Below are positions 1-45,048 of a DNA stretch of 45,048 nucleotides, piece after piece (the first letter of the stretch is position 1; each line of letters begins with the position of its first letter). The position numbers and the translations under genes are program-made. The notes below the pieces were generated by a model that was not told where the DNA came from, made no database searches, and saw only the letters and a list, made by a program, of their open reading frames with translations. The DNA is from a virus, in the IMG/VR virus record IMGVR_UViG_3300045988_083207; one strand, 5' to 3'.

Positions 1-41
1 CGCTCGGCCTGTTCGGCGGCACGCAGGACGATAACGGTCAG
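1..41. repeat. Terminal direct repeat, copy 1 (identical to 45008..45048)
   Basis: 41/41 nt identical to the last 41 nt of the window. Confidence 0.95.
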
Positions 42-9067: not shown

Positions 9068-9128
9068 CAAAGGGTCCGCCGCCCTGCCACTCGGCACGTT
9101 TTCAGAGATACACCCAATGGCCAGTGAT

Positions 9129-9587
9129 TTATTTTCTTTTTCGGTCGCTCTCCAGAACGGCCCGGATCAGTTCGTTTTCCCTGTCGATCTTTTCGGCCAG
9201 GTTTTGCGCCATATCATCCAGTTTTTTGGTGGCCTCCGCCGCCGGTATGCTTTTCCCGTCCGGCTTTGTAAAGCACCCCTGCGGGTTCAATGCCAGGATG
9301 GTATAACAATGCCCCAGGCGCACGTCCAGGGCCATGAGCGCGGCCCTGGCCTCCAGCAGGTGCCCTTTCCGCAGGCCCATGTTCGGCTCTCCCTTTGGAA
9401 AAATACTGTTCGCCTTTTCCGTCTGATCGATCACTTCCCCGGCCAGCGCGGCCACCGGCTCCGCCAGCAGGCGGGCATACCTTGCGGAAAGCCTGGTCAG
9501 AAATGCCACGGTTTCCACGTAGATCTCATTGGCCAGGTTTACGTACTCCGCCTTGCTGGTTGATCTCTTGCTTTTCAGTACGGACAC
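9129..9587 (-). CDS. avd: Avd-like accessory variability determinant (helical bundle)
   Basis: 152 aa, predicted helical. GTG start with AAAGGAGGGG RBS. Canonical position between the target gene and the TR. Confidence 0.55.
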   Translation of the reverse strand: MSVLKSKRSTSKAEYVNLANEIYVETVAFLTRLSARYARLLAEPVAALAGEVIDQTEKANSIFPKGEPNMGLRKGHLLEARAALMALDVRLGHCYTILALNPQGCFTKPDGKSIPAAEATKKLDDMAQNLAEKIDRENELIRAVLESDRKRK

Positions 9588-9622
9588 GGCCGCCCCTCCT
9601 TTCGGTTCTTTCTCGGTCGGAT

Positions 9623-9644
9623 CCCGCCCACTTCCGTGGGCGGG
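9623..9644 (-). other. Hairpin downstream of VR1 (9-bp GC stem, GGAA loop on the coding strand)
   Basis: Plus strand reads cccgcccac ttcc gtgggcggg. Lies about 25 nt after the fibre stop codon. Confidence 0.7.
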
Positions 9645-9668
9645 ATTTTCTCCGATTGCTCCGCCGGA

Positions 9669-12191
9669 TTAGGCGGCAAAGCCGGGGGCCACGGCCCAGG
9701 AAACGTCCGCGCCGCTGCTGCCGGCGCCGCCGTCGGTGTAGACACGGCAGAAAATGCCGGTGTACGCCGCACGGACGGACCGGCACCACGCATAGGCCGC
9801 CGTGCCGGTGGCGTCGTGCTTGTAATGCACCTTGCTGTTGCCCGCCTGGTAATAGGCGTACTGCTGCTGGTAGTTCTGTTCCGCGCTGTTGGCATAGGAC
9901 CGGGCGCCCTGCACCTCGAACTCCGAAAGCAAAGGCAGGTAGTCCGTGGTGCTGGTCACATAACTGGCCGTATTGCTCCCGCCGCCGGTGTTGTCGCTGT
10001 ACTTGGTGATCGGTTTCATTACAGCGCGGAGATCCGCCGGCAGGGCCGCCAGCAGGGTGTTTGCCCTCGGGCTGGTTGGGGTCGTGTCGGAACCCAGGAC
10101 CGTGGTTCTCATGTGGCTGCCAGCCCACCCGCCGCTGTTGGTGTTGCTGGTGTTCATGGTAAACTTTCCGCTTGTGCTGGTGGAACTCCCGTAACTGCTA
10201 TCGCAGAGGCCCACCTGGGTGCCGCCGATCTTCCCGATCTTGAAGTGGATCCGGTTGGAACCCTCCCGGCTGGCGTTGTGGTTGAACCCCAAAATAAAAA
10301 CATTGATTGACAGGTTGGAGAACGAAGTGGCGCCCACGGTCCCGTTGATGGTGATGGTCTTGGTGTCGCCCACGTCCCAGTAGTTGTCCCCCTGGCCCGC
10401 GTCGGAAACCGCCTTGATGGTGGCCCACGAATTGCTGTTTAAGGTGCTTGAGATCACGGTCACGGTGATGGCCTGGGTGGTCGTCTTGGTCACTCCGCCC
10501 TCCGAATAGGAAACGGTGATGGCCGTGGTCCCCTGCGAAAGGGCGCCGGTGGGGGAGTAGGTGTACCCGGTTACTGCCGCGCTGCTCCCGTCGTTATAGT
10601 GCGCCGTCACCACCATGCCCGCCGTGCTGAAAGTTTCCCCGGAGAAATAGGAGGTCCTGCTGGGCGGTGTGGTGATCTCAATGCTGGTCAGCACCTTGGA
10701 AACAGTGATGGCCTGGGTGGCCGTCTTGGTCACTCCGCCCTCCGAATAGGAAACGGTGATCGTGGTGCTGCTCATGTTCAGGGTGCCGGTGGGGGAGTAG
10801 GTGTACCCGGTCACGGCGCGGCTTGCGTCGTCCGTATAGTACGCCGTCACCACCATGCCCGCCGGGTTGAAGGTTTCCCCGTACTTGTACGCCGTCTTTG
10901 TGGGCGGCGTCGTTACCGCGATATGGTCCAGGACCCGCACGGCCACCGCCACCGTGGTGGTCTTTGTGATCCCCGCCCGGCTGTATGTCACAGTGACAGA
11001 CTGGGTTCCCTGTGCCATGACCTGGGGGGAAAATGTGCAGTCGTCCGTCACGTTTTCGGTGGTGTCGTCCTCAAAAGTCGCTGTCACCACCATGCCCGCC
11101 GGGCTGAAGTTCTCTCCGATGAAATAGGTGGTTTTTGTCGGCTGCGTGGTCACGGCGATCCCGCTCGTGATCATCAGGTCCACCTCATACAGCAGGCCGC
11201 CGCCCACCTCAACCTCCTGGGACACGCTTTCGCCGTTCAGGCTTGCCGTCACGGTCCAGGCGCCCACGTGCGGCAGTTCAAACTCCGTGGAACCCGTACC
11301 TTGCAGGGTGGTTTCTCCGCCGTCAGAACAGGTCACGGACGCGCCCGCACAGGTTGTCACGGAAATGGTGGGGCTTTGCACCCCGATGGCCTCTTTCAGC
11401 GCCTGCAGGGTTGCTCTCCGGTGCTGTCCCGTGGATACGTCATAGAAGGGAATAAAGTCCTGCGTGTTCATGCTGCTTTCCTGCGTCAGGGCGTTGGTGG
11501 GCGCCTGGTAGTCCGTGCCCGCCGTTGCCTTTTCCACGCTGTACTTGTCGCCCTCCTCGGTGGTTGTCTTTTTCCCTTTCAGCAGGCCCTCCACTTTGAT
11601 CTGGTCCTGTTTATTTGCCAGGGCGCCGCCGTGGGCGTCCGGGTCCTCGTTGTGGTCGTCGATCAGATCCTGCAGGCTCTCCTCCAGTTCCGGCTTGATC
11701 GTGTTGTTGAAATATTCCGCCACGTCCTCGGCGGTCATCCACGCCTCCGCAGGATACGCCACGTCAACCTGGGTTCCGGTCGTCACCGTGATGGATACCG
11801 GATACCGGCGCACGTCCGGCGCCGTGCCCGCTACGTATGCGCTCACGTACTGCTTGGCGTTGCCCAGGGAACCATACCCGATCAGGGTTTCCTCTCCGTT
11901 CCCCACCTTTCCGAAAATGCCAAATTCTCCGATCCAGAACCCTTCCTGCAGTCCTCCGTTCAGGTCGGATCTGTATTCCACGATCATGTTGACGTTGTTC
12001 CCGTCCACCGTGGGCGCGGTGCTTGTCGCCTCCGGCCCCGGTGCGATCAGGTCCGTTAATTCCCGCGCCGCGTCCGGGTTGTCTGCAGTTCCTTCACCCA
12101 CCACAGCCTTTGTGATGGTCAGGGTCTGCCCGGCCACCATGCTGGCCAGGAGCGCGTTTCCGCTCTCCGTGATTACAAATCCATAGAACAC
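9669..12191 (-). CDS. Tail fibre / DGR target 1: tail-collar N-terminus, three Ig-like repeats, C-terminal lectin-type variable domain
   Basis: 840 aa. N-terminus MFYGFVITESGNALLASMVAGQTLTITKAVVGEG is P2 H-like. Three roughly 80-aa repeats. C-terminus is AYAWCRSVRAAYTGIFCRVYTDGGAGSSGADVSWAVAPGFAA*. Confidence 0.85.
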   Translation of the reverse strand: MFYGFVITESGNALLASMVAGQTLTITKAVVGEGTADNPDAARELTDLIAPGPEATSTAPTVDGNNVNMIVEYRSDLNGGLQEGFWIGEFGIFGKVGNGEETLIGYGSLGNAKQYVSAYVAGTAPDVRRYPVSITVTTGTQVDVAYPAEAWMTAEDVAEYFNNTIKPELEESLQDLIDDHNEDPDAHGGALANKQDQIKVEGLLKGKKTTTEEGDKYSVEKATAGTDYQAPTNALTQESSMNTQDFIPFYDVSTGQHRRATLQALKEAIGVQSPTISVTTCAGASVTCSDGGETTLQGTGSTEFELPHVGAWTVTASLNGESVSQEVEVGGGLLYEVDLMITSGIAVTTQPTKTTYFIGENFSPAGMVVTATFEDDTTENVTDDCTFSPQVMAQGTQSVTVTYSRAGITKTTTVAVAVRVLDHIAVTTPPTKTAYKYGETFNPAGMVVTAYYTDDASRAVTGYTYSPTGTLNMSSTTITVSYSEGGVTKTATQAITVSKVLTSIEITTPPSRTSYFSGETFSTAGMVVTAHYNDGSSAAVTGYTYSPTGALSQGTTAITVSYSEGGVTKTTTQAITVTVISSTLNSNSWATIKAVSDAGQGDNYWDVGDTKTITINGTVGATSFSNLSINVFILGFNHNASREGSNRIHFKIGKIGGTQVGLCDSSYGSSTSTSGKFTMNTSNTNSGGWAGSHMRTTVLGSDTTPTSPRANTLLAALPADLRAVMKPITKYSDNTGGGSNTASYVTSTTDYLPLLSEFEVQGARSYANSAEQNYQQQYAYYQAGNSKVHYKHDATGTAAYAWCRSVRAAYTGIFCRVYTDGGAGSSGADVSWAVAPGFAA
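9678..9803 (-). repeat. DGR variable repeat 1 (VR1)
   Basis: Differs from the TR at 20 positions that are all adenines on the TR coding strand, plus one non-adenine site (9745). A flanking IMH-like stretch from 9665 is shared with VR2 but not with the TR. Confidence 0.85.
10463..11180 (-). repeat. Tandem repeat of about 240 bp, three copies, encoding Ig-like domains
   Basis: 10466..10520 versus 10706..10760 is nearly identical (period 240). The third copy is diverged. Confidence 0.8.
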
Positions 12192-16971: not shown

Positions 16972-19269
16972 TTACCCCGTCACAGGTTCCGGCTTGAAGT
17001 TCTTCCGGCGTTCCTCCGCTTTCATGCGCTTATACAGGCGTTTGAACTCCTGGAAGGAGATCCGCATGGCCTCCTCCACGTCCTCGCGGTCTGCTTTTCC
17101 GTTGAAGTTCAGCACCGGGGCAAAAATTACGGTTTCCCCGTCGCCGTCCTCCACTTCTCCGCCTCCGCCGCTCGGTTTCGGCTTTCTGATCCATTCATCC
17201 AGCATGGCCGCCAGTTTGGACAGCGGCATGACGGCCTCCGGCTCTCCGCCCTCGCCAATTTCCGCCAGGGTGGGGGAAGTTGCTATGCCGCCCTCCGCCA
17301 GTTGCGGGATCGTCGGGATATTAAACCCCAGCGTAGTTCCGCCGACGCCCGGCACCCAGTCCGGGATTGTCACGGATATGCTGTTGATCTTTGAAAGCAC
17401 CCAGTTAATGGCAGAAATGACCCCGTTGATCGGCGCCTTTGCCAGATTTACGATCATTCCGAACAAATTTCCGAATATATTCACGATATTCTGCCATGCT
17501 GCGGACCAGTTGCCGGAAAACACGTTGCTGATAAAGTCGATGATATTTTGAAAAATCGCTTTGACGTTCTCGACGGCGGCCTGGATACTCTCCCACCACC
17601 CCTGCAGGTAGGCGCCCAGCAGGGGAAATTTTTCGCCTATGGCCGCGATAGCATTTCCCACCATGTTGGAAAAATTGGTCCAGATCTGGTTCACGGTGTT
17701 GCCGAAGTTCACCAGCCACGCCTTTACCGTGTCCCAATTTTTATACAGCAGGGCTATGGCGGCCGCCACCGCTATGATGATACCCAACGGCCCCATGAGC
17801 GCGGATCCGAACGCCTTAAATGCTCCGGTGATCTGTGTGATCTTCCCGGATTGCTGCAGCAGGGCCACAAACCCCTTGGCCTTTGAGTACATACTCATGG
17901 CCGTGGTCACGGCTCCGATGGCCGGCCCCAGCACCCGGAGGGCTGCGGCCACGGCCAGCACCGTACCCTTGTGTTCCCACAGGAAAGAGAGGAAGGGCTG
18001 GGCCTTGTCGTATGCCTTGCCCGCCCAGTCTGCGAAGTCCTTGATCCCGTCCACCAGGACCGGCAGGCCGTCCGAAATGGCCCCGCCCGCCCAGTCTGCG
18101 AAGTCCTCCGCGATCTCTGCGATCACCGGGGAAACCTCCTCCATGGCCTCCGTGATCTCCGGCATACTGTCCATGAGTGACTGATACACGGCGTCCGCCG
18201 CCGGCAGCAGGGATACTTCCATTTGACGCCCGATCCCCTGCAGGGCGCTGTCCAGGTCGTTGTACCTTACCTGGTTGATCTGCTCCAGGGCGCCCTCGGT
18301 GTCGTATGCGGCCTGCGACGCGCCCGCCATGGCCTCCATGGCCTCCACGCCCAGGTCCTCCCACATTGTTCCGAATAGCGCGACGCCCAGGGCGTCCCGT
18401 TTCACCTGGTCGTCCACGTCCAGCAGGGTGTTGATCACGTCGAAAAACGCCTCGTTTGCCCCCTCGCCGCCGGCGGCAAAGGTGGCCATGATCTCCTCCG
18501 CGTTGTATCCCAGGTCTTTGAACGCCGCCACCGTTGTGTCGCTCCCGTCAATGGCGCGGATCGAAAATTCCTTGATGGCGTCGCCCACCTTGTCCAGGTT
18601 CCACGCCGTGCTGTCCGCTCCAGACTGGAGGAGATTAAACATACCGTCCGCCGTGAAACCCAGTTTTGAGAACTGGCTGGAATATTCATTGATGGTGTCG
18701 ATCAGTTCCCCGGAGTAGTCCAGGCCGTTTTGTGCGCCCGCCGCAATCAGGCTGAACGCCTCCTCTGCAGAGGATCCGAAGTTCTTACGGATTGCCTCCG
18801 CCGCCCGTGTGCTTTCCGCCACGTCGTACTCGAAAGCGTCCCGAAGGGCCAGGGCGCCCTCGGTCGCGTTTGTCAGTCCGTTTTTATCCAGGTTCGCCAT
18901 GTTCCGGTCCACCAGGGCCACGGCGTCGGCCACGTCGGCCACGTCCTCCCCGAAGTTATCCGCGTACACGTTTTCCATAACGTCCCGCAGGTTCTCCAGT
19001 TCCTCGCCGGCCGCGCCGGTCGCGGAGGCCATTTGATTGGTGGCCGTCTGCCACTCTCCGCCCAGGTCTGCCAGGTACTTGGTGGCGGCGATGGCCCCTG
19101 TTCCCATCGCCGCCAGCCCGGCCGTCATAACGGTGGATGCTTTGTTGGCGGCCTTTTGAATGGTCGCCAGTTGCTTGTTGGCCGCCTTGGTACTGGTCCC
19201 CAGGGATTTATCTACCTTTCCAGCGATTTTTATGGCCAGTTCCATGACCTTGCTTTTTGCCAATTTCAA
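16972..19269 (-). CDS. Tape measure protein
   Basis: 765 aa, Ala/Gly-rich and helical, with internal hydrophobic segments. Downstream of the chaperone pair. Confidence 0.85.
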   Translation of the reverse strand: MKLAKSKVMELAIKIAGKVDKSLGTSTKAANKQLATIQKAANKASTVMTAGLAAMGTGAIAATKYLADLGGEWQTATNQMASATGAAGEELENLRDVMENVYADNFGEDVADVADAVALVDRNMANLDKNGLTNATEGALALRDAFEYDVAESTRAAEAIRKNFGSSAEEAFSLIAAGAQNGLDYSGELIDTINEYSSQFSKLGFTADGMFNLLQSGADSTAWNLDKVGDAIKEFSIRAIDGSDTTVAAFKDLGYNAEEIMATFAAGGEGANEAFFDVINTLLDVDDQVKRDALGVALFGTMWEDLGVEAMEAMAGASQAAYDTEGALEQINQVRYNDLDSALQGIGRQMEVSLLPAADAVYQSLMDSMPEITEAMEEVSPVIAEIAEDFADWAGGAISDGLPVLVDGIKDFADWAGKAYDKAQPFLSFLWEHKGTVLAVAAALRVLGPAIGAVTTAMSMYSKAKGFVALLQQSGKITQITGAFKAFGSALMGPLGIIIAVAAAIALLYKNWDTVKAWLVNFGNTVNQIWTNFSNMVGNAIAAIGEKFPLLGAYLQGWWESIQAAVENVKAIFQNIIDFISNVFSGNWSAAWQNIVNIFGNLFGMIVNLAKAPINGVISAINWVLSKINSISVTIPDWVPGVGGTTLGFNIPTIPQLAEGGIATSPTLAEIGEGGEPEAVMPLSKLAAMLDEWIRKPKPSGGGGEVEDGDGETVIFAPVLNFNGKADREDVEEAMRISFQEFKRLYKRMKAEERRKNFKPEPVTG

Positions 19270-19737
19270 GCACCACCTTTGCCATTTCGTTCAGGTCGTC
19301 CAGCGGCAGTCCCAGGAAGTAGTCCACGCCGCTATGTAGTTGGAGAGATAGGCCGATACAGCCCTTTTTTATATCCGGCGGGTTTATTCCTCTCCATCCC
19401 CGCCGTACAGAAAACCCGTGACCATGTTTTTCAACTTCATGGCCTCCACCGGGGGCAGTCCCTTGAAGAACTCCACGGGCTTGCGGCTTGCTCTGGCCGC
19501 CATATACATGGCATAGGGCAGGGTCATTTCCGGGATCGGGGTCACGCCCAGGTCCCGGTTGGCCAGTTTGCCCACGGCGCACAGGTCGCCGGCCGTCATG
19601 TCCTCCATGCCGGACAGGTCCACCTCGGTGTATTCCTGGCCCTCGAACTTGTAGGGCTTGCGAAATTTCAGGACCAGGCTTTCCTCCTCGGTTTCCTCCT
19701 CCGCCGTCACGGGCTGGATCTTCTCAATGTCGCTCAT
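19208..19737 (-). CDS. Tail assembly chaperone, -1 frameshift product (E+E'-like)
   Basis: Frame 0 is 19737..19384. A G_GGU_UUU slip at 19417..19411 opens the -1 frame, which runs to 19208 (…INPPDIKKGCIGLSLQLHSGVDYFLGLPLDDLNEMAKVV…). Confidence 0.6.
19384..19737 (-). CDS. Tail assembly chaperone (short form)
   Basis: 117 aa, acidic, between the tube and tape measure genes. Confidence 0.7.
   Translation of the reverse strand: MSDIEKIQPVTAEEETEEESLVLKFRKPYKFEGQEYTEVDLSGMEDMTAGDLCAVGKLANRDLGVTPIPEMTLPYAMYMAARASRKPVEFFKGLPPVEAMKLKNMVTGFLYGGDGEE
19411..19417 (-). promoter_or_regulatory. Slippery heptamer GGGTTTT for programmed -1 frameshifting
   Basis: X_XXY_YYZ in the correct phase (acG GGU UUU), 9 codons before the frame-0 stop. 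Confidence 0.55.
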
Positions 19738-20258
19738 TAGATCATTTCCCTCACTTTCTGCAGAATGTCCACGCCGCGCACCTTAAAGGTGGGGTTCAGT
19801 TTATCCAGTTCGATCAGGCTCTCTCCGCCCACTTCCACCAGGATATAGGACAGGTTCAGGGTCACGCTGCTTTCCATGGCGCTGCCGCTCTTTACGCTGC
19901 CCAGGGCAAGGGTGGCGCTCTTTCCGCGCACCACCACGCGCATGGATCTGAACTCCGTGTTTCCTTCCACGGTCAACGTCTGCTGGGCCGCCCGGAGGGT
20001 CAACTGCACCGCTTTGGTCATGTCCATCATGTCCGCCGCCTCCTGGTCGATCACCCGGAAGGGGATCTCCATTTCCATGTTGGAGAAGTGGCCCACGGTG
20101 GGGTCGTCCAGTTCGCCCAGGATACCGGCGCCGGAAATGGTGTCTGCCAGGGCCTCGAAGTCCGGCAGGGGGACTTCATCACCCACGCCGATCAGGCGAT
20201 CCGCCACGTTGTAGACGTTGTAATTATTGATTTTGCTGGGAATAGCAGGAATGGCCAT
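19737..20258 (-). CDS. Major tail tube protein
   Basis: 173 aa, immediately after the sheath gene. FII-like. Confidence 0.7.
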   Translation of the reverse strand: MAIPAIPSKINNYNVYNVADRLIGVGDEVPLPDFEALADTISGAGILGELDDPTVGHFSNMEMEIPFRVIDQEAADMMDMTKAVQLTLRAAQQTLTVEGNTEFRSMRVVVRGKSATLALGSVKSGSAMESSVTLNLSYILVEVGGESLIELDKLNPTFKVRGVDILQKVREMI

Positions 20259-20260
20259 TT

Positions 20261-21733
20261 TTATTCACCTCCACCAGTCAGGGCCGCCTCCAGGGCCGCC
20301 GTGTCGTATTCGCGGATATTCTCGATTTCCTCCGCCGGGATATAGGGCGCCAGGTAGGTGTGGACAGTCAGGTGGCCGTCCAGCAGGTTGGTGATCGGGT
20401 TTTCGTCGGATCTGAACTCCGTCCGGTATCCGGCGCAGTAGTCCCGGGCTACGTACCCGTTGCCGATGATGTTCTGGCTGTCCACGATGGACTGGATCAG
20501 GCGGGTGTTGCCCGGCTTGTCCACCTTCTGGAAGTACGTCAAAATAAAGTTGTTGCCGTCCCAGTCGAAGAAACGGCGCACCGCCAGCCACCGATCCTTG
20601 GGATCGGAGGTGGAAGGATAGGCCGCCGTGTTGTTGCCCCAGGCTTTGTACCCGTTTGCATTGATGGCGGTGATCACGCCGTTGGCGTTCAGCAGGTCGT
20701 TGGCCTGCTGCTGATCCAGCAGCACCTCCGTGCCGTCTTTCAGCACGGTTTTGGTGATCTTCAAATCCTTGTTGGACGGGCTTTCATAGGGCACGTCGCT
20801 GTTGTTGGCGTCCGTGTAGGCCGTCAGGGCGGCAAACATGGCGGACAGGTAATAGATCTTGTCGCCCACCGCGCCCATGGGCCACAGGGCCGCCGCGTGG
20901 GGGGAGGTGGCCCCCAGGGCCTCCTTGGCGGTTTTCACGTCGGTGTAAACGTCCGCGCCGCCCTCCTCCTTGTCGGTGGAAATATCCAGGTAGGTCACGC
21001 AGTCGAAATTCCCGTTGATCGCCTCGGTCTTTGCCTGGAGCGCCGCCGCCACGGTGGGGTTGTGGCTCCATCCGGGGGCCAGCAGGATCCCGGCCGTCAT
21101 GCCGAAACGGGGGTAGATCTGGCGCACCAGTTCCAGGCCGGTTTCCTTCCCGGTCAGGGCGTCCACGCCGCCCACAATATCCGCAGGCGTCACGCCGTCC
21201 GGTTTCAGGCTGGTGCTTGCCACTTTCAGGGTTTCCGCCTCCTTGGCCGCCTCGGACAGAATGGTGATCGTCACCGTCCCGTCCTCCGCATGAGTGGCCA
21301 CGTAGTCGCTGCCAGCCACCAGGGTGGCGTCCGCGTTCTTGACCACGATGGTGTCCAGGAGGACAAACTGCTTTCCGTATGCCACGGCACCGTCCGACAC
21401 GGCGCAGTCCTCCTCCTCGTTTTCCGTGGTGTGGCTTTCCTTGCTGGGATCCAGCACGTTCACCAGAATAATGGGCGCCACGTTGAAAACTCGGAAACAG
21501 GCGTCCATGCTCTGGCAAAGGGTGAAGTTCTCGAAGTCGTCCGAATAGCCCATGGCCTGCTGGCACTCCGCGAAGGAATAGCACACCACGGGCTTGTTTA
21601 CGGCCGCCGCCGGGTCCGCCGCCATGTGGATCGGGGCAGTTCCGAAGATAACCTGCAGGCCCGCCGTCCCCTGGATCGGTGTGGTCAGGCTGGTTTCCTG
21701 CTCCTGGTTGTAAACGCCGTGATTATAAGCCAT
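20261..21733 (-). CDS. Contractile tail sheath protein
   Basis: 490 aa. Size, position and FI-like composition. Confidence 0.8.
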   Translation of the reverse strand: MAYNHGVYNQEQETSLTTPIQGTAGLQVIFGTAPIHMAADPAAAVNKPVVCYSFAECQQAMGYSDDFENFTLCQSMDACFRVFNVAPIILVNVLDPSKESHTTENEEEDCAVSDGAVAYGKQFVLLDTIVVKNADATLVAGSDYVATHAEDGTVTITILSEAAKEAETLKVASTSLKPDGVTPADIVGGVDALTGKETGLELVRQIYPRFGMTAGILLAPGWSHNPTVAAALQAKTEAINGNFDCVTYLDISTDKEEGGADVYTDVKTAKEALGATSPHAAALWPMGAVGDKIYYLSAMFAALTAYTDANNSDVPYESPSNKDLKITKTVLKDGTEVLLDQQQANDLLNANGVITAINANGYKAWGNNTAAYPSTSDPKDRWLAVRRFFDWDGNNFILTYFQKVDKPGNTRLIQSIVDSQNIIGNGYVARDYCAGYRTEFRSDENPITNLLDGHLTVHTYLAPYIPAEEIENIREYDTAALEAALTGGGE

Positions 21734-21749
21734 TGTTCAGTCCCTCCCT

Positions 21750-22007
21750 TTAGGTCTTTCCCTGTACGGCCTTATACAGGGTATAAATGCGGCCGGATTT
21801 CTGGCGCAACTGGCGCATGGCCTCCGGCAGATCCTCCAGGGGCACGATCAGGGCGCTCAGGACTTTGTTTTTCTCGGTCGCCGCTTTCAGCCCTTCCGGG
21901 ATCCCGTTGTTGTAGGCGGTGAACTGCCTGGCCACGCCCTTGATGGGCGGGCCGCAGTACACCACCGTGCCGGCGGCCTCCGCCGCCTTTCTGGTTCTCT
22001 TGGTCAT
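21750..22007 (-). CDS. Hypothetical protein (85 aa)
   Basis: ORF coupled to its upstream neighbour. Confidence 0.45.
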   Translation of the reverse strand: MTKRTRKAAEAAGTVVYCGPPIKGVARQFTAYNNGIPEGLKAATEKNKVLSALIVPLEDLPEAMRQLRQKSGRIYTLYKAVQGKT

Positions 22008-22630
22008 GTATATGGCACCTCCTGGCGCACCGCTGGCGCCTCAAATTTCAGCGACATGGCCCCGAAATAGTAGGGGTGTGTGTCGTCCTGCTGTGTGACC
22101 CATTTGATCGGATACATGATGGACCACGGGCCGCCTACCGCGCCCCCGCTGTCCGGTTTGATCCTCACTACGGGATTTTTGGCGTATCGCCCGCAAATCT
22201 CCTGGATGATGTGCAGCACGTCCCGGTATCCCTGCCGGTTCGGGTTTTTGTCGTAGACGCACACCACCAGGATCATGTCGATTTCCTGGGGGCTGTTGGC
22301 GTCCTGTATGTTCCCCTCGTTGGTCCGCACGATGATGTACGGTTCCGGGATCTCCTCGGTCCGGTCCTCGGTTTCGTCCATTCCCTCGATGATCGGGAGG
22401 TCCTGGGGGTAAACCCGGATCGGCCGCTTGTCGCCGGCGGAACTCTGGAGGGTCTGCCCCTCGAACAGGTCCGCCAGGTCCGCCACAATGGCGTCCTGCA
22501 AAAATTCCGGTGTCGTGGTGTTCGCCTCCTTGACTTTTCGCCGCTTTTCGTGGTAAATTCTTGTTGTGGTAATAGTCTGAAAATCGTGGTAATACACGGC
22601 ACGAAAGGGTGTGTTAAAATGCCGGTACAA
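22004..22630 (-). CDS. Putative neck/tail-completion protein (start uncertain)
   Basis: The C-terminal roughly 160 aa look protein-like. No convincing RBS/start was found, and the 5' 60 nt overlap promoter-like motifs of the opposite strand. Confidence 0.4.
   Translation of the reverse strand: MYRHFNTPFRAVYYHDFQTITTTRIYHEKRRKVKEANTTTPEFLQDAIVADLADLFEGQTLQSSAGDKRPIRVYPQDLPIIEGMDETEDRTEEIPEPYIIVRTNEGNIQDANSPQEIDMILVVCVYDKNPNRQGYRDVLHIIQEICGRYAKNPVVRIKPDSGGAVGGPWSIMYPIKWVTQQDDTHPYYFGAMSLKFEAPAVRQEVPYT
22566..22581 (+). promoter_or_regulatory. GTGGTAATAGTCTGAA motif copy c
   Basis: Identical 16-mer to 3251..3266. Upstream of the plus-strand island. Confidence 0.45.
22585..22595 (+). promoter_or_regulatory. 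Motif copy d, CGTGGTAATAC (extended -10-like), 24 nt before ATG 22619
   Basis: TGgTAATAC, followed by gaaaggg RBS and ATG. Confidence 0.45.
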
Positions 22631-23494
22631 CTCGATCTTTGGTCCATTTCTCCTCCCGTTTCTTCCCGCCCCGCTGGCAGCGCGAACGATCCAGACGCTT
22701 TTGGGTGCTGTTCTCGGTATCGTTCCTGTTCCGCTGCCGGGAAGTGCTTAATTCCTGGCCTTGACTATTCCGCCCATTGTTCTTATCGAAAGAACCTGGA
22801 GGCCGGCCGGATTTTCTACGGGAAAAACTCTTGTGGGTTCTCTGCGGACCGCTATTTTTCGCTATGCTCTGCCGTCGGCGCTCTGCCGGACGGTGCCCGG
22901 CTGGCGCTTGACGGCCTGGTGATTGACTTCTGCGAATACCGGCGCGGTGCCTCCTCGGTCGTCGTCCGCTCCGTATTCCTTTCTGATCTGGCAGGGCTTT
23001 CTCTTTTCGATTTTTCCCCGCTTGGCCCCATGTTTCCGCGTCTGTGCGGCTATCGGCAGTTGCTTTCCTCCGTGATGGAAAACCCCTCCTATGGCCCAAT
23101 GTTTCGCCGTGCGCAGGAGGCCGGGTCCGGCTCAAAACCCGGCCCGAAAACGAAAGAATTTCTGTCCGATTGGTTGAACCGTGCCGGTGTTTCCTTGCGG
23201 GATGAACTTTCTGCACCGTATCTCTTGGCGTCCATACGGTCGGATGCTCTTTCATATCTGGAAGAACTGTACCATGATACTTTGGCCGCGTCCTACGATG
23301 GCCGCATATACGCTCGTTCTCCTCTTGCGGAGGATGGTTTTTTGTCCAGCGCGGACTACGAAAGGGAGGAGCTGCGCCGGATCTCTCTTTCCCGTGGGTA
23401 TTCCCCGGAGGAAAAGGCCAGCCTTTCCGCCCCGCTCCTGGAGGCCCAGGCCGCCCGATCCCGCTCCGCAAATAAGGGGGGTGGTTCTGTATGA
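22619..23494 (+). CDS. Uncharacterised Cys-rich protein (plus-strand island gene 1)
   Basis: 292 aa from ATG 22619. N-terminal DAFGCCSRYRSCSAAGKCLIPGLDYSAHCSYRKNLEAGRIFYGK. The long ORF upstream of 22619 is antisense overlap. Confidence 0.55.
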   Translation: MPVQLDLWSISPPVSSRPAGSANDPDAFGCCSRYRSCSAAGKCLIPGLDYSAHCSYRKNLEAGRIFYGKNSCGFSADRYFSLCSAVGALPDGARLALDGLVIDFCEYRRGASSVVVRSVFLSDLAGLSLFDFSPLGPMFPRLCGYRQLLSSVMENPSYGPMFRRAQEAGSGSKPGPKTKEFLSDWLNRAGVSLRDELSAPYLLASIRSDALSYLEELYHDTLAASYDGRIYARSPLAEDGFLSSADYEREELRRISLSRGYSPEEKASLSAPLLEAQAARSRSANKGGGSV

Positions 23495-24909: not shown

Positions 24910-25415
24910 TACTGGGCACCCCCGTTTTCATTCTTTGCGGGGGCGTAGACCTCCGCCGCCGTGATCACAGCGATCAGGTCCGCCTTTGTCTTTGCCTTGG
25001 AGATCTCCAGCCCCATGTCGGTGGCCATTCTCTCCAGGTCGGCCTTTTTCAGGTCCTCCAGGTCCTTGGGGTCCAGGTGCCCAGCGATCATCCCTCCGTC
25101 CTGGGTGCCCTGGGTGTTCTGTGCGCCGTCCTGGTCGCCCTTGGCACCGTCCTGGCCGTCCTGGGTGTTCTGTGTGCCGTCCTGGTCGCCCTTGGCACCG
25201 TCCTGGCCGTCCTGGTCGCCCTTGGCACCGTCCTGGCCGTCCTGGGTGTTCTTGGCTACGTCCGGCGCGTTGTCCTGGCTCTCTCCGCACCGTTCCGCGC
25301 TGTCATTCTCCAGCCATGCGTCCACCATTCTGGCGTCGTCGCCGGGCAGGTTGTCCCCGGCCTGATACATACGGCCCCGGTATAGGATCGGCCGCTTTGC
25401 AATCAGTCCTTTCAT
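24909..25415 (-). CDS. Repeat-containing protein with a C-terminal HeH/Rho-N-like motif
   Basis: 168 aa. (QDGQDGAKGD)n low-complexity core. LEDLKKADLERMATDMGLEISKAKTKADLIAVI. Confidence 0.55.
   Translation of the reverse strand: MKGLIAKRPILYRGRMYQAGDNLPGDDARMVDAWLENDSAERCGESQDNAPDVAKNTQDGQDGAKGDQDGQDGAKGDQDGTQNTQDGQDGAKGDQDGAQNTQGTQDGGMIAGHLDPKDLEDLKKADLERMATDMGLEISKAKTKADLIAVITAAEVYAPAKNENGGAQ
25128..25238. repeat. Exact 30-bp unit gtcctggtcgcccttggcaccgtcctggcc, three copies
   Basis: Copies at 25128..25157, 25179..25208 and 25209..25238. Confidence 0.9.
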
Positions 25416-35490: not shown

Positions 35491-35674
35491 GGCGCTTTCC
35501 TCCGTTCATCATCAGCAGTCTATCCCTTACAAGGTCGTCAATCACACGGCCCCGCTCCCGGTATCCCATTTCTTTGGCCAGCCTTTCCAGGTTGTAGTCC
35601 GTTTGCGCCGTTACTACCTCGGAGATCCGGCGCAGGTTCTTTTTGTTCCATTTCCCGGCCTGCCTGTTTTTCAT
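35471..35674 (-). CDS. Small hypothetical protein (67 aa)
   Basis: ATG 35674 overlaps the methylase stop (ATGA). Confidence 0.45.
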   Translation of the reverse strand: MKNRQAGKWNKKNLRRISEVVTAQTDYNLERLAKEMGYRERGRVIDDLVRDRLLMMNGGKRHERNEN

Positions 35675-37596
35675 ACCGCCACCGCCTTTTCCAGTTCCTC
35701 CATGGTGCTGATCTCCTGGCTGCACCACTCCGGCAGGTTTGCCCGCACCAGGGCGGTGGCGAACGGCGGCGGGACCGCATTTCCGCACCTGGCCACCTGC
35801 TTGGTTTTTGGGTACACCGTCCCGGTATAGTCCCGCTCGATCTTGTAGTCCACCGGGAACCCGTTGGCCATATACAATTCCCTGGGGGTCAGCATACGCA
35901 GGCCAATGTCTGCCAGGAAATAGGCCGCGCCGTCGATTTCAAACAGGATCACGTCCTCCGGCCCCAGTTTATACCCGCAGTAGGTGTTCAGCAGGTCCCG
36001 GATCTCCGGCCAGTGTCCCAGTTCCGCGCCCGGCTCCGCCCTTGCCACCACGGTGGTGACGACGCCGAAGTGTCCGCCGCCGGCCGTGATGGTCTGCACC
36101 GGCTCCGACATGGGGCCGCCCAGGTTTGTCCCCTTCATTTTGACCATGTGCGTGGCCACAAGGCCCTGGTGGTCGTTCCCCAGTGTCGTGGCCGCAGGCT
36201 CTCCGGCCCTTGTCCCAATGCTGGCGCCGTGGTACTCCGTTATGTGTGCCGCCAGGACGGCCTCCCGGTCTTTCGCCGTCACCGTATGGAGCGGATCCCC
36301 AATTCCTTGGCCGTGTTGGTCGCTCCCGTAGTATTTGACCAGGCTGGCCGCCGCCAGTCCGTAGCGGTTGGAGGCATCAATGGTCATAAGCGGGTCCGCC
36401 ACGCCCTGGCCCCGTACCCTCTCCGTCTGCTCCGTGTGGTATTGGATCAGCGCCGGCGCCACCACGCACTCCTCCGCCTTGGAAACTTGGGTGTGCGTCG
36501 GCTCCGTGATTTTCCGCCCCCGCTCACCGCCGCCGGTTTGCCCTATGGCCGCCAGCGTCGGGGTGATCACCATTTGATGGCCGCCCGCTCCGCTGCTTGT
36601 GATCGTGTTCACCGGCTCCGTGATCCCTGTCCCGGTCGCGTTCTCGTTGTTGTGCATGGTCAGCGGCGCCATGACGGGGGAGGCGACGCCATACCCATGC
36701 TTTGCTGTCACCGTCTGGAGCGGCGCGGCGGCGTCCTGCCCCCGGAAGTCGCCCGCGTGGTTTACCACCACCAGGAACGGCTCCGGGTTCTTTATGGCGA
36801 ACTTGTCCACGCCCCTGATCACCCGCCGCATGGTGTTGGGCCGGAGTGGCCGCTTGGCGGAAAGGCCGTATTTCTCCCGGATCTGCTCCCGCGTGTCAAA
36901 AATGGAGGGGCAGGGGAGGGACCAGTCTATGATTTCCGCCGCGCTCCGCCACGGCTTTTTCCTGCCCTCCAGCGCCTCCAGGCTGTCCGCCGGCGCGTGT
37001 GTCGACTCCGTCCACACAATGGGCGCACCGTCGCACCTGGCCACCAGGAAGAACCTTTTTCGCGTTGTGGGCGCTCCGTAGTCCGCCGCCACCAGTTCCC
37101 GCCATTCTACGGCATACCCCAGGGCCTGCAGTTGGGAAAGCCACTTGTGGAAGGTCTGTCCGGCTTTTGATTTCACGGGTCGCCCCCGGCGCACCGGCCC
37201 CCATGTCTGGAACTCCTCCACGTTCTCCAGGATGATCACCCGGGGCCGCACGGTTCCGGCCCACCGCAGTACGATCCAGGCCAGGCCCCTTATGTTCTTG
37301 TCCACCGGCTTTCCGCCCTTTGCTTTGGAAAAATGTTTGCAGTCGGGAGAGAACCACGCCAGCCCCACCGGGCGCCCCTTTGCCACCTCGCACGGGTCCA
37401 CGTCCCACACGCTTGCCTGGTAATGCTCCGTAAACGGGTGGTTCGTCTTGTGCATGAGTATGGCGTCCGGGTCGTGGTTGATGGCTATGGTCACAGGCCG
37501 CCCCGTCGCCAGTTCGATCCCCGTAGACGCCCCGCCGCCGCCGGCGAAGTTGTCCACGATGATCTCCTCCAGGAGGTTGATCTGCGCCCCGCTCAT
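35671..37596 (-). CDS. DNA (cytosine-5) methyltransferase with seven tandem TRD-like modules
   Basis: 641 aa. Motif I DNFAGGGG, IV SPDCKHFS, VI ENVEEF, VIII APTTRKRFF, IX RMLTPRELYMANGFP, X CGNAVPP. Repeats lie at aa 289-520. Confidence 0.85.
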   Translation of the reverse strand: MSGAQINLLEEIIVDNFAGGGGASTGIELATGRPVTIAINHDPDAILMHKTNHPFTEHYQASVWDVDPCEVAKGRPVGLAWFSPDCKHFSKAKGGKPVDKNIRGLAWIVLRWAGTVRPRVIILENVEEFQTWGPVRRGRPVKSKAGQTFHKWLSQLQALGYAVEWRELVAADYGAPTTRKRFFLVARCDGAPIVWTESTHAPADSLEALEGRKKPWRSAAEIIDWSLPCPSIFDTREQIREKYGLSAKRPLRPNTMRRVIRGVDKFAIKNPEPFLVVVNHAGDFRGQDAAAPLQTVTAKHGYGVASPVMAPLTMHNNENATGTGITEPVNTITSSGAGGHQMVITPTLAAIGQTGGGERGRKITEPTHTQVSKAEECVVAPALIQYHTEQTERVRGQGVADPLMTIDASNRYGLAAASLVKYYGSDQHGQGIGDPLHTVTAKDREAVLAAHITEYHGASIGTRAGEPAATTLGNDHQGLVATHMVKMKGTNLGGPMSEPVQTITAGGGHFGVVTTVVARAEPGAELGHWPEIRDLLNTYCGYKLGPEDVILFEIDGAAYFLADIGLRMLTPRELYMANGFPVDYKIERDYTGTVYPKTKQVARCGNAVPPPFATALVRANLPEWCSQEISTMEELEKAVAV

Positions 37597-39148: not shown

Positions 39149-39225
39149 ATCCCGGACGGTTTTTCCGTCGCTTATATTGCCACCTGCGCCGTGTTGTCAG
39201 CACCAGGCGCAGGTGGCTTTCTTTT
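39149..39225 (+). ncRNA. Candidate antisense small RNA of about 75 nt, opposite the leader of the Rep-like gene
   Basis: The promoter above is followed by hairpin gacgg-ttttt-ccgtc. A 12-bp terminator stem gccacctgcgcc / ggcgcaggtggc and tttctttt then follow. There is no plus-strand ORF here. Confidence 0.35.
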
Positions 39226-39457
39226 ATGATAGAAAATCCTTGGCCAGTTCCAGCAGTTCCGCCGCGTGTTCCTGGTCCACGATCTTGACCTTTCCGGGCC
39301 GTTTCGGGTCTGCCTCTATGGCCCAGCAGGCTTTATTTGCCAGCATTTCCCATTTCCTGCTCCATGCGTCCATTTCCGATCTGTAATGGCTCTTGTCTTT
39401 TCTCCAGGCCATGAACTCCTGGAACTCCTCCGCCGTCATGGTCACGGTCACGTCCAT
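39224..39457 (-). CDS. Hypothetical protein (77 aa)
   Basis: GGAAGGAGG RBS. Confidence 0.5.
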   Translation of the reverse strand: MDVTVTMTAEEFQEFMAWRKDKSHYRSEMDAWSRKWEMLANKACWAIEADPKRPGKVKIVDQEHAAELLELAKDFLS

Positions 39458-39469
39458 GGTTTCCTCCTT

Positions 39470-39489
39470 CCCGCCGCTTTCGCGGCCGG
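39470..39489 (-). other. Hairpin downstream of VR2 (GAAA loop on the coding strand)
   Basis: Plus strand reads ccc gccgc tttc gcggc cgg. Lies about 20 nt after the stop of target 2. Confidence 0.55.
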
Positions 39490-39508
39490 ATAATTTCGGA
39501 TTTTCGGA

Positions 39509-39808
39509 TTAGATGTCAAAGCCGGGGGCCACGGCCCAGGAATAGCTCGCGTTGCTGTCGCTGGCGCTGCCGTCGGTGTAGACACGGCAGAAATGGTAGG
39601 TGTCCGTCGCATAGACGGACCGGCACCACGCACAGGCCGCCGCGTTCATAATCGCCGCCAGGTTTGATATGTGCGGCACTACGACGGATCCGTGGTCCGG
39701 GTGCGTGACCCTTGATTTCCCCGGGACGTTCCACCGATGGAACCGCGCCCGCTCCTCTGCGCTGCGTCTTGCCTGGTTCGGTCCGTCGGTGAAGTTAAAC
39801 GGCCTCAA
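39509..39808 (-). CDS. DGR target 2: small ORF ending in a lectin-type variable region
   Basis: Ends AACAWCRSVYATDTYHFCRVYTDGSASDSNASYSWAVAPGFDI*. The likely TTG start overlaps the upstream stop (TTGA). ATG 39886 is an alternative start. Confidence 0.55.
   Translation of the reverse strand: MRPFNFTDGPNQARRSAEERARFHRWNVPGKSRVTHPDHGSVVVPHISNLAAIMNAAACAWCRSVYATDTYHFCRVYTDGSASDSNASYSWAVAPGFDI
39518..39643 (-). repeat. DGR variable repeat 2 (VR2)
   Basis: Collinear with the TR. 14 differences at TR-adenine sites, plus the same single non-adenine site (39585) seen in VR1. An IMH-like flank from 39505 is shared with VR1. Confidence 0.8.
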
Positions 39809-40707
39809 CCCACCACCGCCTCCCAGCGGGCCATGGCCTCCATGACCTTCTCGCTGTGTTCGGTGGATGTTACGCCATTCTCCCACGCCCGTTCCGCTCC
39901 GGCGTTCCCCATGTTGTAGGCCATGACGGCCTTTTCCGTGTCGCCATAATTGACCAGGTGGGCGCCCAGGAGGTACACGCCGCAGACGATATTCCCGGCC
40001 GGTGTCGTCGGGTCCTGGTTCGTTTCCGCCTCCAGGTTGATCCAGTATGTATTCTCCGGTCCTGGATTTAACTGCATGATCCCAACCTCTCCGGCGGAAC
40101 CCACGGCGTCCATGTCAAAATGGCTTTCTACCTCCGCCACGGCCAGCGCCAGGGGATAGGGGCACCCGTATTCCTCGCAGGCTGTTCTCATAATGTCCTG
40201 CAGGTCGTAGGAAAGGGGAACGGCGTCTGAAAGGTATCCCTGGGCCAGCAGGGCCTCCTCGATCTTTTCCGCCTCCATGGGATCCTCTCCGATGGTCGGC
40301 GTCACGAACACGACGGGATCCACGGCCGTGGCCTCTTTCCCCGGTTCATTCTCTTGCGCCGTGCAGGCCGTTGCGATTGCCCACACGATGGCAAGCAGCA
40401 GGACGGCCGCGCAGGCCAGGGTGATGATCCGGCGCCTGGCCAACTCCCGCCGGCGGCGCTCATTCCTCTTGTGGCGCTCCACTTTCTTCTGCTCCTCCGC
40501 CGCCCTCTCTGCGGCCGCGTTCTCCGCCTGCAGGTTCGCCCACATTCTCGCGGCCTCCCGGCGCTTTTTTGCCTCCGCCGCCAGATCCTCCCGGCGGTGT
40601 CTGGCCTCCATGGCTCCGATCCGGCGTTTCAGGTCGTCCACGTCCTCCACCACGCCCTTGTACTGGTCCATGGCCCGGCGGTACTCTTTCGCTTTCCTCT
40701 GGCTCAC
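39805..40707 (-). CDS. Membrane-anchored lytic transglycosylase (SLT domain)
   Basis: GTG 40707 (GTGA overlap, GGGAGGAGG RBS). Coiled coil, TM segment IITLACAAVLLLAIVWAIA, then LALAVAEVESHFDMDAVGSAGEVGIMQLNP ... AYNMG. Confidence 0.75.
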   Translation of the reverse strand: MSQRKAKEYRRAMDQYKGVVEDVDDLKRRIGAMEARHRREDLAAEAKKRREAARMWANLQAENAAAERAAEEQKKVERHKRNERRRRELARRRIITLACAAVLLLAIVWAIATACTAQENEPGKEATAVDPVVFVTPTIGEDPMEAEKIEEALLAQGYLSDAVPLSYDLQDIMRTACEEYGCPYPLALAVAEVESHFDMDAVGSAGEVGIMQLNPGPENTYWINLEAETNQDPTTPAGNIVCGVYLLGAHLVNYGDTEKAVMAYNMGNAGAERAWENGVTSTEHSEKVMEAMARWEAVVG

Positions 40708-40883
40708 TTCTTTGCGCCTCCTCCCGTGAAAAACTTCCGCTTGACCTCGTAGGGCAGGCCGAACCGCCGGCGGCCGCACTTGTCGCAGGTGATCTTCTCG
40801 GACCGGCCCGGCAACTGCTTGACCTCCCGATCCCGCCGGGCGGCGGTCGCCACCGCGCACGGCTTGCAAAGGTTCTTTTTCAT
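40704..40883 (-). CDS. Small zinc-ribbon protein (59 aa)
   Basis: CKPC...CDKC. Confidence 0.5.
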   Translation of the reverse strand: MKKNLCKPCAVATAARRDREVKQLPGRSEKITCDKCGRRRFGLPYEVKRKFFTGGGAKK

Positions 40884-43843: not shown

Positions 43844-43876
43844 AGGTCACACTCGGTCGTTGACCTTGTGTAACCT
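43844..43876. repeat. 33-bp imperfect palindrome between the first early gene and the right junction
   Basis: aggtcacactcggtcgttgaccttgtgtaacct. 12 of 16 arm pairs are complementary, with an inner ggtc-N3-gacc. Confidence 0.7.
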
Positions 43877-43892
43877 AATCTTAATGGCTGCC

Positions 43893-43907
43893 CCGTGCGC
43901 TTTGCGA
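43893..43907. repeat. Right copy of the 15-bp junction direct repeat
   Basis: ccgtgcgctttgcga, identical to 1658..1672. Confidence 0.85.
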
Positions 43908-45048
43908 CTGCATGGGCCTAACCTCGCTCACTGTCCCGGACGGTGTGCGCGAGCTGCCGGACTTGGTGTTCAGCGGCTGCGTGAGTCTCACCTCCCTCAC
44001 ACTGCCCGCCGGCCTGACTTCGATCGGCAGGGGCGCGTTTTGTTCCTGCAGATCGCTGACGGAGGTCACGATCCCCGACAGCGTGCAGTTCATCGGCGAG
44101 ACGGCGTTTGCCGATATGCCGTGTCTGCAGACCATCCATGTCGGCGCGGACAACAGCGCCTACAAGACGGTGGACGGTGTGCTTCTGACAAAGGCGGGCG
44201 ATGTGCTGCTCGCCTATCCCACGACGCGCCCCGGCATCCGCTACGATGTGCCGGACGGTGTCACCCGCATCGGCGAGCTGGCTTTTTATGGCAGCGGCCT
44301 GATGATCGTCCGCTTCCCGCAGAGCCTGCGCACGGTCGGCGACGAAGCGTTTGAAGACAGCACGCTTCTCGTCGCGCTCGAGTTTCCTGCCGGTACGGAG
44401 GAGATCGGCTGGGATGCTTTTGAAAACGACAGCAATATCAGCGATGTGTTCTTTGGCGGCACAGAGAATGCGTGGTATCAGCTCGTCAAGCATGAGGCAT
44501 ATAAGTTCCCGCTCGAGACGCAGATCCATTATCAGTCGCGCATGTTCATCCCGGAGCCGGCCGACCTGTTCACGGATGTGGACGCGGACAACTGGGCGTA
44601 CATCAGCATCGATTTTTGTGTGCTGGTGGGCCTCATGTCCGGCATGAGCGAGACGACCTTCTCGCCCAACACGGTGACGACGCGCGCGCAGCTCGTGCAG
44701 GTGCTGTATAATTTCGTGGGTCAGCCGGATGTGACCGGCGTGACCACGCCGTTTACGGACACCCCGGCCGACTGGTATCAGGCTGCGATCGCCTGGGCGT
44801 ATGAGACCGGCGTCGTGGACGGCACGTCGCCCACCACGTTTGCGCCCAACGAGAGCGTGACGCGCGAGCAGATTGCCGTCCTCCTCACGCGTTTTCTGAC
44901 CAACGTCTGCGGCGTGGAGCGCACGTGGACGCCGGATGATCTGTCCGGCTTTGCCGACGGCGTCAGCGTCTCCGGCTGGGCGCGCGCCGGCATGGCCGAC
45001 GCCGTGGCGCTCGGCCTGTTCGGCGGCACGCAGGACGATAACGGTCAG
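43908..45048 (+). pseudogene. 3' portion of the disrupted LRR-SLH surface protein gene (runs off the window end)
   Basis: Frame is open from 43885. CMGLTSLTVPDGVRELPDLVFSGCVSLTSLTLPAGLTSIGRGAF... are LRR units, followed by SLH-like repeats (FTDVDADNWAYISIDFCVLVGLMSG; FTDTPADWYQAAIAWAYETGVVDG; FADGVSVSGWARAGMADAVALGLFGG). No RBS or signal peptide of its own. Confidence 0.8.
45008..45048. repeat. Terminal direct repeat, copy 2
   Basis: Identical to 1..41. Confidence 0.95.

Follow-up and report, generated by a model that had tools for sequence, protein, structure and literature searches.

The viral DNA analyzed here (IMG/VR record IMGVR_UViG_3300045988_083207, 45,048 nt, referred to below as the window) carries a diversity-generating retroelement (DGR) with one template repeat (TR), a first variable repeat (VR1) at the end of a tail-fiber-like gene, and a second variable repeat (VR2) some 30 kb from the cassette, at the end of an open reading frame (ORF) of 99 aa. 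The segment 39505-39643, which contains VR2, is a bona fide remote variable repeat of the single DGR of this phage. The ORF that houses it is very probably a chimera produced by a very recent deletion of 2,355 nt, in which the 5' part of a conserved 89-aa gene was fused in frame to the variable repeat of a 221-aa DUF6273 protein, the two ends being joined through a TR-like filler. Unless otherwise stated, the features described lie on the minus strand of the window.

A repeat search detected a single family of direct repeats with three copies, at 8929-9066, 9665-9802 and 39505-39642. The first one was assigned as the TR (8929-9070; core 8945-9066, with 31 adenines) because the genes lie on the minus strand and the reading of that strand places the adenines in this copy. 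The ungapped 122-nt core was then compared in the three copies (TR 8945-9066, VR1 9681-9802 and VR2 39521-39642). VR2 differed from the TR at 14 of the 31 adenines and at one thymine, a concentration of 14 of 15 mismatches on adenines with a hypergeometric P = 4e-9. VR1 differed at 21 of the 31 adenines and at the same thymine, TR position 9009, where both variable repeats have G; this was the lone non-adenine difference. VR1 and VR2 differed from each other at 19 positions, all of them TR adenines. Both are read in the same frame, that of the AAC/AAT codons of the TR, and finish at the same TAA stop. The initial annotation of this DNA had proposed a genuine second repeat of the same DGR, collinear with the TR and with 14 substituted adenines forming a set different from that of VR1; repeat family, frame, stop and flank all agree with this, and its description proved right in every checkable detail. 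The first and last 41 nt of the window (1-41 and 45008-45048) are the same sequence, and the assembly is therefore closed into a circle of about 45,007 bp, on which the path from VR2 to the TR in the opposite direction measures about 14.5 kb.

The three copies contain the GC-rich element GGCCGTGGCCCCCGG. What comes next separates them: VR1 and VR2 have CTTTGnCnnCTAATCCG, whereas the TR has ATTTCACAACCTCCG. In VR2 the flank specific to variable repeats (CTTTGACATCTAATCCG, 39505-39521) includes the stop codon, and it was 100% identical in the contigs L061-L070 (L numbers designate contigs of relatives). A stem-loop, TCCGGCCGC-GAAA-GCGGCGGGA (39469-39490), lies downstream of VR2 and just upstream of the ribosome-binding site of a 77-aa gene (39224-39457), the one directly downstream of the repeat. 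Its core, GCCGC-GAAA-GCGGC at 39473-39486, has a loop of the GRNA type, as does the hairpin downstream of VR1 (TCCCGCCCAC-GGAA-GTGGGCGGGA, 9622-9645, with stem arms read as CCCGCCCAC-GGAA-GTGGGCGGG at 9623-9644). The 91-nt stretch of VR1 gave z = -3.9, and the 91-nt fold of VR2 was overall no more stable than shuffled sequence (z = -0.03); the stem of the latter is kept in relatives, with GAAA or GCAA in the loop. As previously suggested from the part common to VR1 and VR2 only, the flank and hairpin of VR2 are a candidate homing signal of the initiation of mutagenic homing (IMH) type, judging from their sequence.

The cassette comprises, in this order, an 840-aa target ending in VR1, a 152-aa gene, the TR and the reverse transcriptase (RT) gene. 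The target (9669-12191) is tail-fiber-like, with matches to Big_3 and Phage_tail_fib and a weak one to DUF6273, and its 3' end is formed by VR1 together with its IMH-type flank (9665-9802). The RT gene (7585-8715, 376 aa from the ATG at 8715 in an ORF open to 8841) is located directly downstream of the TR; it matched RVT_1 with E = 1e-15 and had 1,115 homologues at E <= 1e-60. The 152-aa gene (9129-9587), between target and TR, occupies the slot of the accessory (Avd) gene by position only; it had no Pfam match and fell in PHROG 30516, which has no known function. The TR was 100% identical in the window and ten further contigs (L071-L080), among which VR1 varied amid identical flanks. By every cis and trans feature testable in sequence, the accessory protein excepted, the DGR of the window appears to be an ordinary one.

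The 99-aa ORF (39509-39808, TAA stop at 39509-39511) begins at a TTG that overlaps the stop of the upstream SLT lytic transglycosylase gene (39805-40869; 300 aa from the GTG at 40707 in relatives) as TTGA. This start, already considered in the initial annotation, is the one used by gene callers for the ortholog in more than 20 relatives. The search for homologues of its N-terminus, which that annotation had proposed, was carried out with the ORF in 5.8 billion protein clusters and retrieved a conserved family of 22 proteins of about 89 aa (P0001-P0022), none of them with a variable-repeat tail. These proteins are identical or near-identical to residues 1-57 of the chimera (MRPFNFTDGP...NLAAIMNAA; P0001 is identical) and continue with EVWGCDWxxILDAEVWAVDPSEPxAEMPxxYx. 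The chimera lacks these last 32 residues and has the variable repeat in their place. Its codons 1-57 (39637-39808, the native sequence ending at 39637) come from the conserved 88/89-aa gene downstream of SLT, and this part of the protein is unrelated to the DGR. Codons 58-99 are the variable repeat of the 221-aa DUF6273 protein: only the last 42 residues align with the DUF6273 family, and the likeness to the 840-aa fiber is confined to 41 residues of the variable repeat. The same division was given by blastn, which split the window at 39623. The part from 41000 to 39623 matched the SLT gene and the 5' part of the 88-aa gene, and that from 39623 to 39457 matched L004 (12496-12663), that is, the last 115 nt of the DUF6273 gene and its 3' flank.

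The exact chimeric protein (P0147) was present on 5 contigs, and VR2 was nucleotide-identical in the four distinct contigs fetched; since VR1 was also identical in them, these four represent one clone. Apart from the 99-aa protein itself, the 90% cluster of the chimera contained just a 46-aa call of this sequence, and the junction pattern ATGAACGCGGCGGCCNNTGCGTGGTGCCGG had no match in IMG/VR or JGI metagenome contigs; look-ups of the exact protein by design miss chimera variants with a different VR2.

The decisive comparison was with L066. This contig still has the intact locus, and it matches the window at 100% identity along 1757 nt on the left side of the junction and 2018 nt on the right. 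In the window, 2,355 nt of L066 (2480-4834) are replaced by 13 nt. The ancestral order is SLT, 89-aa gene, 192-aa ORF, 130-aa ORF, N6/N4 DNA methyltransferase, 221-aa DUF6273 gene with VR2, 77-aa gene and Rep; it is kept in L066 and in eight other close relatives, the 77-aa gene being only sometimes present across homologue-bearing contigs. The loss begins at codon 58 in the 89-aa gene, ends at codon 184 in the DUF6273 gene and comprises the tail of the former, the 192-aa and 130-aa ORFs, the methyltransferase and the first 551 nt of the latter, with the remaining ends joined in frame. The existence of an intact locus between identical flanks thus identifies the 99-aa ORF as an in-frame deletion fusion, and the absence of any divergence in these flanks indicates that the deletion is very recent. 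A decayed remnant of a target gene without an intact ORF had been considered from the outset; a remnant of a target gene was indeed found, but its reading frame stayed open.

Two other ideas about the ORF and its source gene were tried and rejected. The native tail of the 89-aa gene is not a decayed variable repeat, in spite of the resemblance of AAEVWGC to AANAWC and of WAVDP to WAVAP: its local alignment with the TR scored 20, and 57 of 500 codon shuffles, as well as 68 of 270 genome windows, scored at least as high. A fusion with the SLT protein, contemplated in the initial annotation and considered here as a product of frameshifting, found no support either, as the window has an ordinary TTGA overlap and the lone fused protein in the databases (P0023) carries additional frameshifts within the 89-aa part and looks like the product of an error-prone assembly. 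As a separate observation, the stretch of the 88/89-aa gene that is deleted in the window contains a run of five or six G (L061/L066, around 2480-2492, compared with L002, L004 and L006). The length of this run decides in which of two open frames (EVWGCDWVKILD... and EVWGVRLGEDPGRRG...) the C-terminal 30 residues are read; the products are of almost equal length, and each form is found in several unrelated contigs.

The same region varies in other phages of the group. A second and independent in-frame fusion was found in L005 (11238-11969, compared with L004 11238-12610), in which VR2 directly continues the N6/N4 methyltransferase, the join being free of TR-type filler; its product reads QQHT followed by TPWSLRSV...GVAPGFDI and a stop, and this phage is 99.9% identical to one with the intact gene. 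VR2 is absent from L006 (3828-3864), with the hairpin kept. The slot between the 130-aa gene and Rep (L083-L151, IMG/VR) is a hotspot of variable content, occupied by the methyltransferase alone, by the methyltransferase and the DUF6273 gene, by the 77-aa gene alone, or by 1-3 kb of other genes.

The exact 77-aa protein was used as a probe to find relatives with an intact second target. Nine metagenomic contigs were obtained in which this protein was identical to that of the window and the 3' flank of VR2 was 100% identical, and these carried nine different VR2s. In seven of the nine, whose VR2 fits a window-type TR, the differences were located at TR-adenine sites and at the T/G site 9009; the VR2s of L062 and L068 had further non-adenine differences from the TR of the window, which suggests that these two contigs probably have different TRs of their own. 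In Dulem virus 34, the fiber VR1, the VR2 of the 221-aa gene and the TR (21402-21525) show differences at TR adenines and nowhere else. Since VR2 varies next to an identical flank and VR1 varies among contigs with an identical TR, the DGR is active on both targets in the phage population. Independent diversification of the two repeats, as initially supposed, holds for the family; the VR2 of the window itself can be explained by a single writing event.

At E <= 1e-5 the 221-aa family amounted to 274 clusters, some of which hold over 1,000 sequences, and its members bear the name DUF6273 protein in Pseudoflavonifractor and Oscillibacter assemblies; intact relatives matched PF19789 with E = 3e-10. 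The second target was seen in only about 6 of the 71 IMG/VR loci with Rep, a set in which many loci leave that stretch uncovered, and is an accessory, not a universal, gene. The structural model of the intact protein reached a predicted local distance difference test score (pLDDT) of 92.1 and a predicted template modeling score (pTM) of 0.89, with the last 40 residues forming four strands packed on the domain. Foldseek related it to phage DUF6273, receptor-binding and tail-collar fiber proteins, with E down to 5e-14; in the PDB it retrieved neither Mtd nor TvpA, and C-type lectins appeared only at non-significant E. The sole near-significant PDB match to this model (mca3908334541) was 9qa6, an IgA peptidase of Thomasclavelia ramosa (E = 4e-3, TM-score 0.57 on the query), and this match suggests a DUF6273-like domain in that enzyme. 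Moreover, some relatives encode proteins of 326-333 aa (P0255, P0260, P0261 and P0264) in which DUF6273 is fused to DUF4406, a nucleoside deoxyribosyltransferase-like domain; a separate DUF4406 gene is located just after Rep in this phage family.

The thymine that differs between the repeats belongs to a CTT codon of the TR and corresponds to positions 9009 (TR), 9745 (VR1) and 39585 (VR2) of the window. It was T in 13 of 13 distinct TRs and G, giving CGT (Arg), in 11 of 39 distinct variable repeats, and never A or C; the contigs beyond the window were L017, L026, L037, L049, L065, L066, L069, L071 and L075. VR1 and VR2 of one contig can disagree at this site, the TR remaining T. Misincorporation by the RT, survival of a resident G through heteroduplex repair, and selection are all possibilities for this recurrence. 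The copying of VR2 from VR1, based on the CGT codon common to both (CTT in the TR) and on TAC/GAC, was rejected, given that the T-to-G change recurs among the variable repeats and that the two repeats of a same contig differ at the site.

The junction of the window reads AACGCGGCGG, CCTGTGCGTGGTG and CCGGTCCGTC in succession. The left block is native 89-aa gene up to 39637 and the right block is ancestral VR2 from 39623. The ancestral part of VR2, from CCGGTCCGTC to the GC-rich element at 39522-39536, thus spans 39522-39623 and is orthologous to the variable repeat of the 221-aa DUF6273 gene. The 13-nt filler between the blocks (39624-39636) occurs in neither parent and equals the TR sequence CCAATGCGTGGTG with AA changed to TG; the VR1 equivalent, CCTATGCGTGGTG, is one base off. 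At the left junction, a CGGCGG microhomology (39637-39642) is common to the 89-aa gene and the 5' end of the TR. The 14 distinct intact copies of VR2 from close relatives all start with GGCACCACGCCCTGGTCCCTCCG(G/T)TCCGTC, or with that sequence changed at one or two bases, translated as GTTPWSLRSV or GTTPWALRSV, and the L005 fusion has the same sequence from ACCACG onward. In these intact copies homology to the TR begins only at CCG(G/T)TCCGTC; where they have the ancestral start, the window has the TR-type GCGGCGGCC-TGT-GCGTGGTG. The filler, close to the TR and VR1 and found in neither parent, indicates that the event was templated by another repeat of the DGR or by its complementary DNA (cDNA).

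It is conceivable, with slightly less than an even chance, that the deletion was made by retrohoming itself, which is the simplest of the accounts that need one step only. An adenine-mutagenized cDNA would have attached in the normal way to VR2 at its IMH and GC-rich end (3' integration). Its other end, 24 nt past the usual boundary of homology between VR2 and the TR, would have joined a cryptic CGGCGG 2.36 kb upstream instead of CCGGTCCGTC, and joining at this cryptic site would have looped out the 2.36 kb. Each of these elements is known from experiments with the phage BPP-1, so the steps are possible. There, the sequence upstream of the variable repeat was dispensable, and 5'-truncated repeats still homed through cryptic 5' integration sites; an identity of at least 8 bp sufficed, and the IMH and hairpin, with loop consensus GRNA, were enough to target a foreign gene (PMC3240598). 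Under this tentative interpretation, held with a little more reserve than the mechanism itself, the junction would be the natural footprint of a stray retrohoming event that deleted four and a half genes and grafted a fully competent variable repeat with its IMH and hairpin in frame onto an unrelated gene.

Several observations weigh against this account or parts of it. The microhomology measures 6 nt, or 7 if an A-to-G change is allowed, under the 8 bp sufficient in BPP-1. The filler is one base from the present VR1, and a DNA template, either VR1 or TR, would give a similar product. The L005 fusion is free of filler and keeps the ancestral TTPWSLRSV, which means that plain microhomology deletions also occur here. 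The lost 192-aa and 130-aa genes are present in nearly all the IMG/VR relatives that cover the stretch, and the phage lineage may be impaired without them. Besides, the 152-aa accessory gene has no Avd signature detectable with Pfam or PHROG, and the contigs with the chimera, being one clone, are uninformative on the activity of VR2 after the deletion.

The same chimera could also have arisen by DNA-templated repair or by template switching during replication, with no cDNA involved in the deletion, and roughly a one-in-three likelihood is attached to this route. A break or a stalled fork would have copied a few bases from TR or VR1 DNA and re-annealed at CGGCGG, and the adenine changes would come from ordinary homing before or after the deletion. 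The closeness of CCTATGCGTGGTG to the filler fits such an origin, as do the filler-free deletion in L005, the absence of VR2 from L006 and the wide variation of the slot between the 130-aa gene and Rep. Against it, two switches and at least one later mutagenic event are required to obtain TGT, and the filler differs from the TR exactly at two adenines, as a single-step DGR cDNA would give.

A plain two-ended deletion, in an unsampled ancestor whose 221-aa VR2 already had full-length homology to the TR (AAxAWCRSV), appears improbable. Distant small members of the DUF6273 group do have TTPYWCRSV or TTPYYCRSV, and the 5' part of the repeat varies in the family. However, the VR2s of the close relatives read TTPWSLRSV or TTPWALRSV in 14 of 14 cases, as L005 does with TTPWSLRSV, and none reads AAxAWC; in six of these relatives both flanks match the window at 99.85% identity or better, and the zero substitutions against L066 in 3.8 kb of flank leave little time for an intermediate.

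The initial annotation had taken the ORF for an evolved mini-protein, in its 99-aa (or 125-aa) version, which would be a dedicated second DGR target in the early region. Its frame is open, with the variable repeat at the 3' end followed by a TAA stop, an IMH-type flank and a hairpin, and the allele persists in several assemblies. Nevertheless, this origin is highly unlikely and gives way to the recent in-frame fusion of the 89-aa gene with the variable repeat of the 221-aa DUF6273 protein: the architecture occurs in one clone only among the 5.8 billion protein clusters, the first 57 residues are those of a conserved, unrelated protein that has lost its own tail, a relative with identical flanks holds the intact ancestral locus, and no DUF6273 scaffold is left. 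The chimera had no Pfam match, the complete DUF6273 domain (profile of about 172 positions) being absent, and its AlphaFold2 model, a prediction already recommended for the 99-aa version, had a pLDDT of 49.2 and a pTM of 0.21, with no confident fold. A lectin-like binding protein cannot be built from the strands of a variable repeat alone, and, with some 180 residues of the DUF6273 scaffold missing, the 99-aa product is probably not a functional variable binding protein. An assembly artefact is the least credible explanation, since, although repeats of about 120 nt with 77-84% identity can confuse assemblers into collapsing or mis-joining TR, VR1 and VR2, the left junction has just 6 nt in common with the repeats and the identical junction was obtained across assemblers and analyses (NODE_451, NODE_708, k127_10465, LIJU14-1 scaffold_506 and the window).

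The chimeric VR2, by contrast with its protein, may still be a competent substrate for mutagenic homing, and the chances of this are judged to be evenly balanced. Relatives with hypervariable VR2s have exactly the same GC-rich element, IMH flank, stop codon, hairpin and downstream ribosome-binding site, and the homology of the chimeric VR2 to the TR now spans the full length of the latter. The orphaned repeat could also be used as a control, to see the effect of the DGR on a repeat when selection on the encoded protein has probably ceased.

Two further features of the window stand apart from the DGR. The plus strand, opposite to that of the remaining genome, carries two genes at 192-1718 and about 43860-45048, wrapping around the ends, whose products are leucine-rich-repeat (LRR_5) and SLH cell-wall-anchor proteins. 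These genes are located between an rve-type integrase (1851-2885) and an HTH_38 gene; relatives of the L004/L049 type lack them, and they resemble a moron insertion. At 25074-25263, nested direct repeats with copy starts 9, 12 or 21 nt apart encode collagen-like Gly-X-Y repeats, on the minus-strand reading, in a small ORF of the structural module.

These results have consequences for annotation. A variable repeat in a tiny ORF should not be called a new class of mini-target before the relatives have been checked; the real second target is the 221-aa DUF6273 protein, common in gut Oscillospiraceae-type phages and left unannotated in the sole deposited genome that carries it. The clone provides a dated, base-resolved case of the loss of a DGR target, with a junction filler that is TR-templated and adenine-mutated. 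If aberrant homing was the cause, the junction would document in nature the short-homology 5' integration known from the BPP-1 experiments; DGRs could then cause deletions and capture new host ORFs as targets, a possible route by which variable-repeat modules reach new genes.

The combination of a fiber and a small protein as targets of one DGR has precedents, although none had been recognized in the initial annotation. The Faecalibacterium phages Lelie and CP11 have DGRs with a large tail-fiber-like target and a small DUF6273 target (PMC11792537). As in the window-type family, one RT and one TR serve the large and the small stand-alone target, both with DUF6273, and the variable region lies at the C-terminus of this domain in the two of them. 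By contrast, their small targets are not close in sequence to the 221-aa family (tblastn of the 221-aa protein against GenBank phages gave only Dulem virus 34 and one weak match), and that of the window has been cut down to its variable repeat and fused to another gene. Two targets were also described in the nd4/nd12 "tentaclin" phages, where VR2 is shorter than VR1 and the two repeats differ within a genome, as in the family studied here; both targets are retained by only 39 of 54 nd4-like genomes, substitutions outside adenines were also described, and no fusion or filler junction was reported (PMC10743442). In those phages, however, both targets are in the cassette and the variable repeat of target 1 lies near its 5' end, whereas the second target of the window is found about 30 kb away (about 14.5 kb if circular), in the replication/accessory region.

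The cis elements resemble those of BPP-1 (mtd), in which a GC-rich element and a VR-specific IMH are followed by a downstream hairpin with a GRNA loop (PMC3240598). BPP-1 differs in having one target and a 4-bp spacer after the IMH, much shorter than the 33-38 nt that separate the GC-rich element from the hairpin in the window. Its cryptic integration was seen in engineered truncations of the variable repeat and within the repeat, not in a natural 2.36-kb deletion, and the microhomology of the window is limited to 6 nt.

The closest deposited complete genome is Dulem virus 34 (PP511788.1), which has the same gene order and the same two-target DGR, with VR1 at the end of an Ig-like fiber (18094-20796) and VR2 in an intact 221-aa gene (35648-36313). 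In this phage the homology of VR2 to the TR begins 18 nt later than that of VR1, and the 221-aa product and the RT (21744-22877) are both labeled as hypothetical. It differs from the window in its DNA identity, of about 74%, and in keeping the second target intact. The features specific to the window are the distance of the second target from the cassette, its replication/methylase setting, the deletion fusion and the TR-templated filler.

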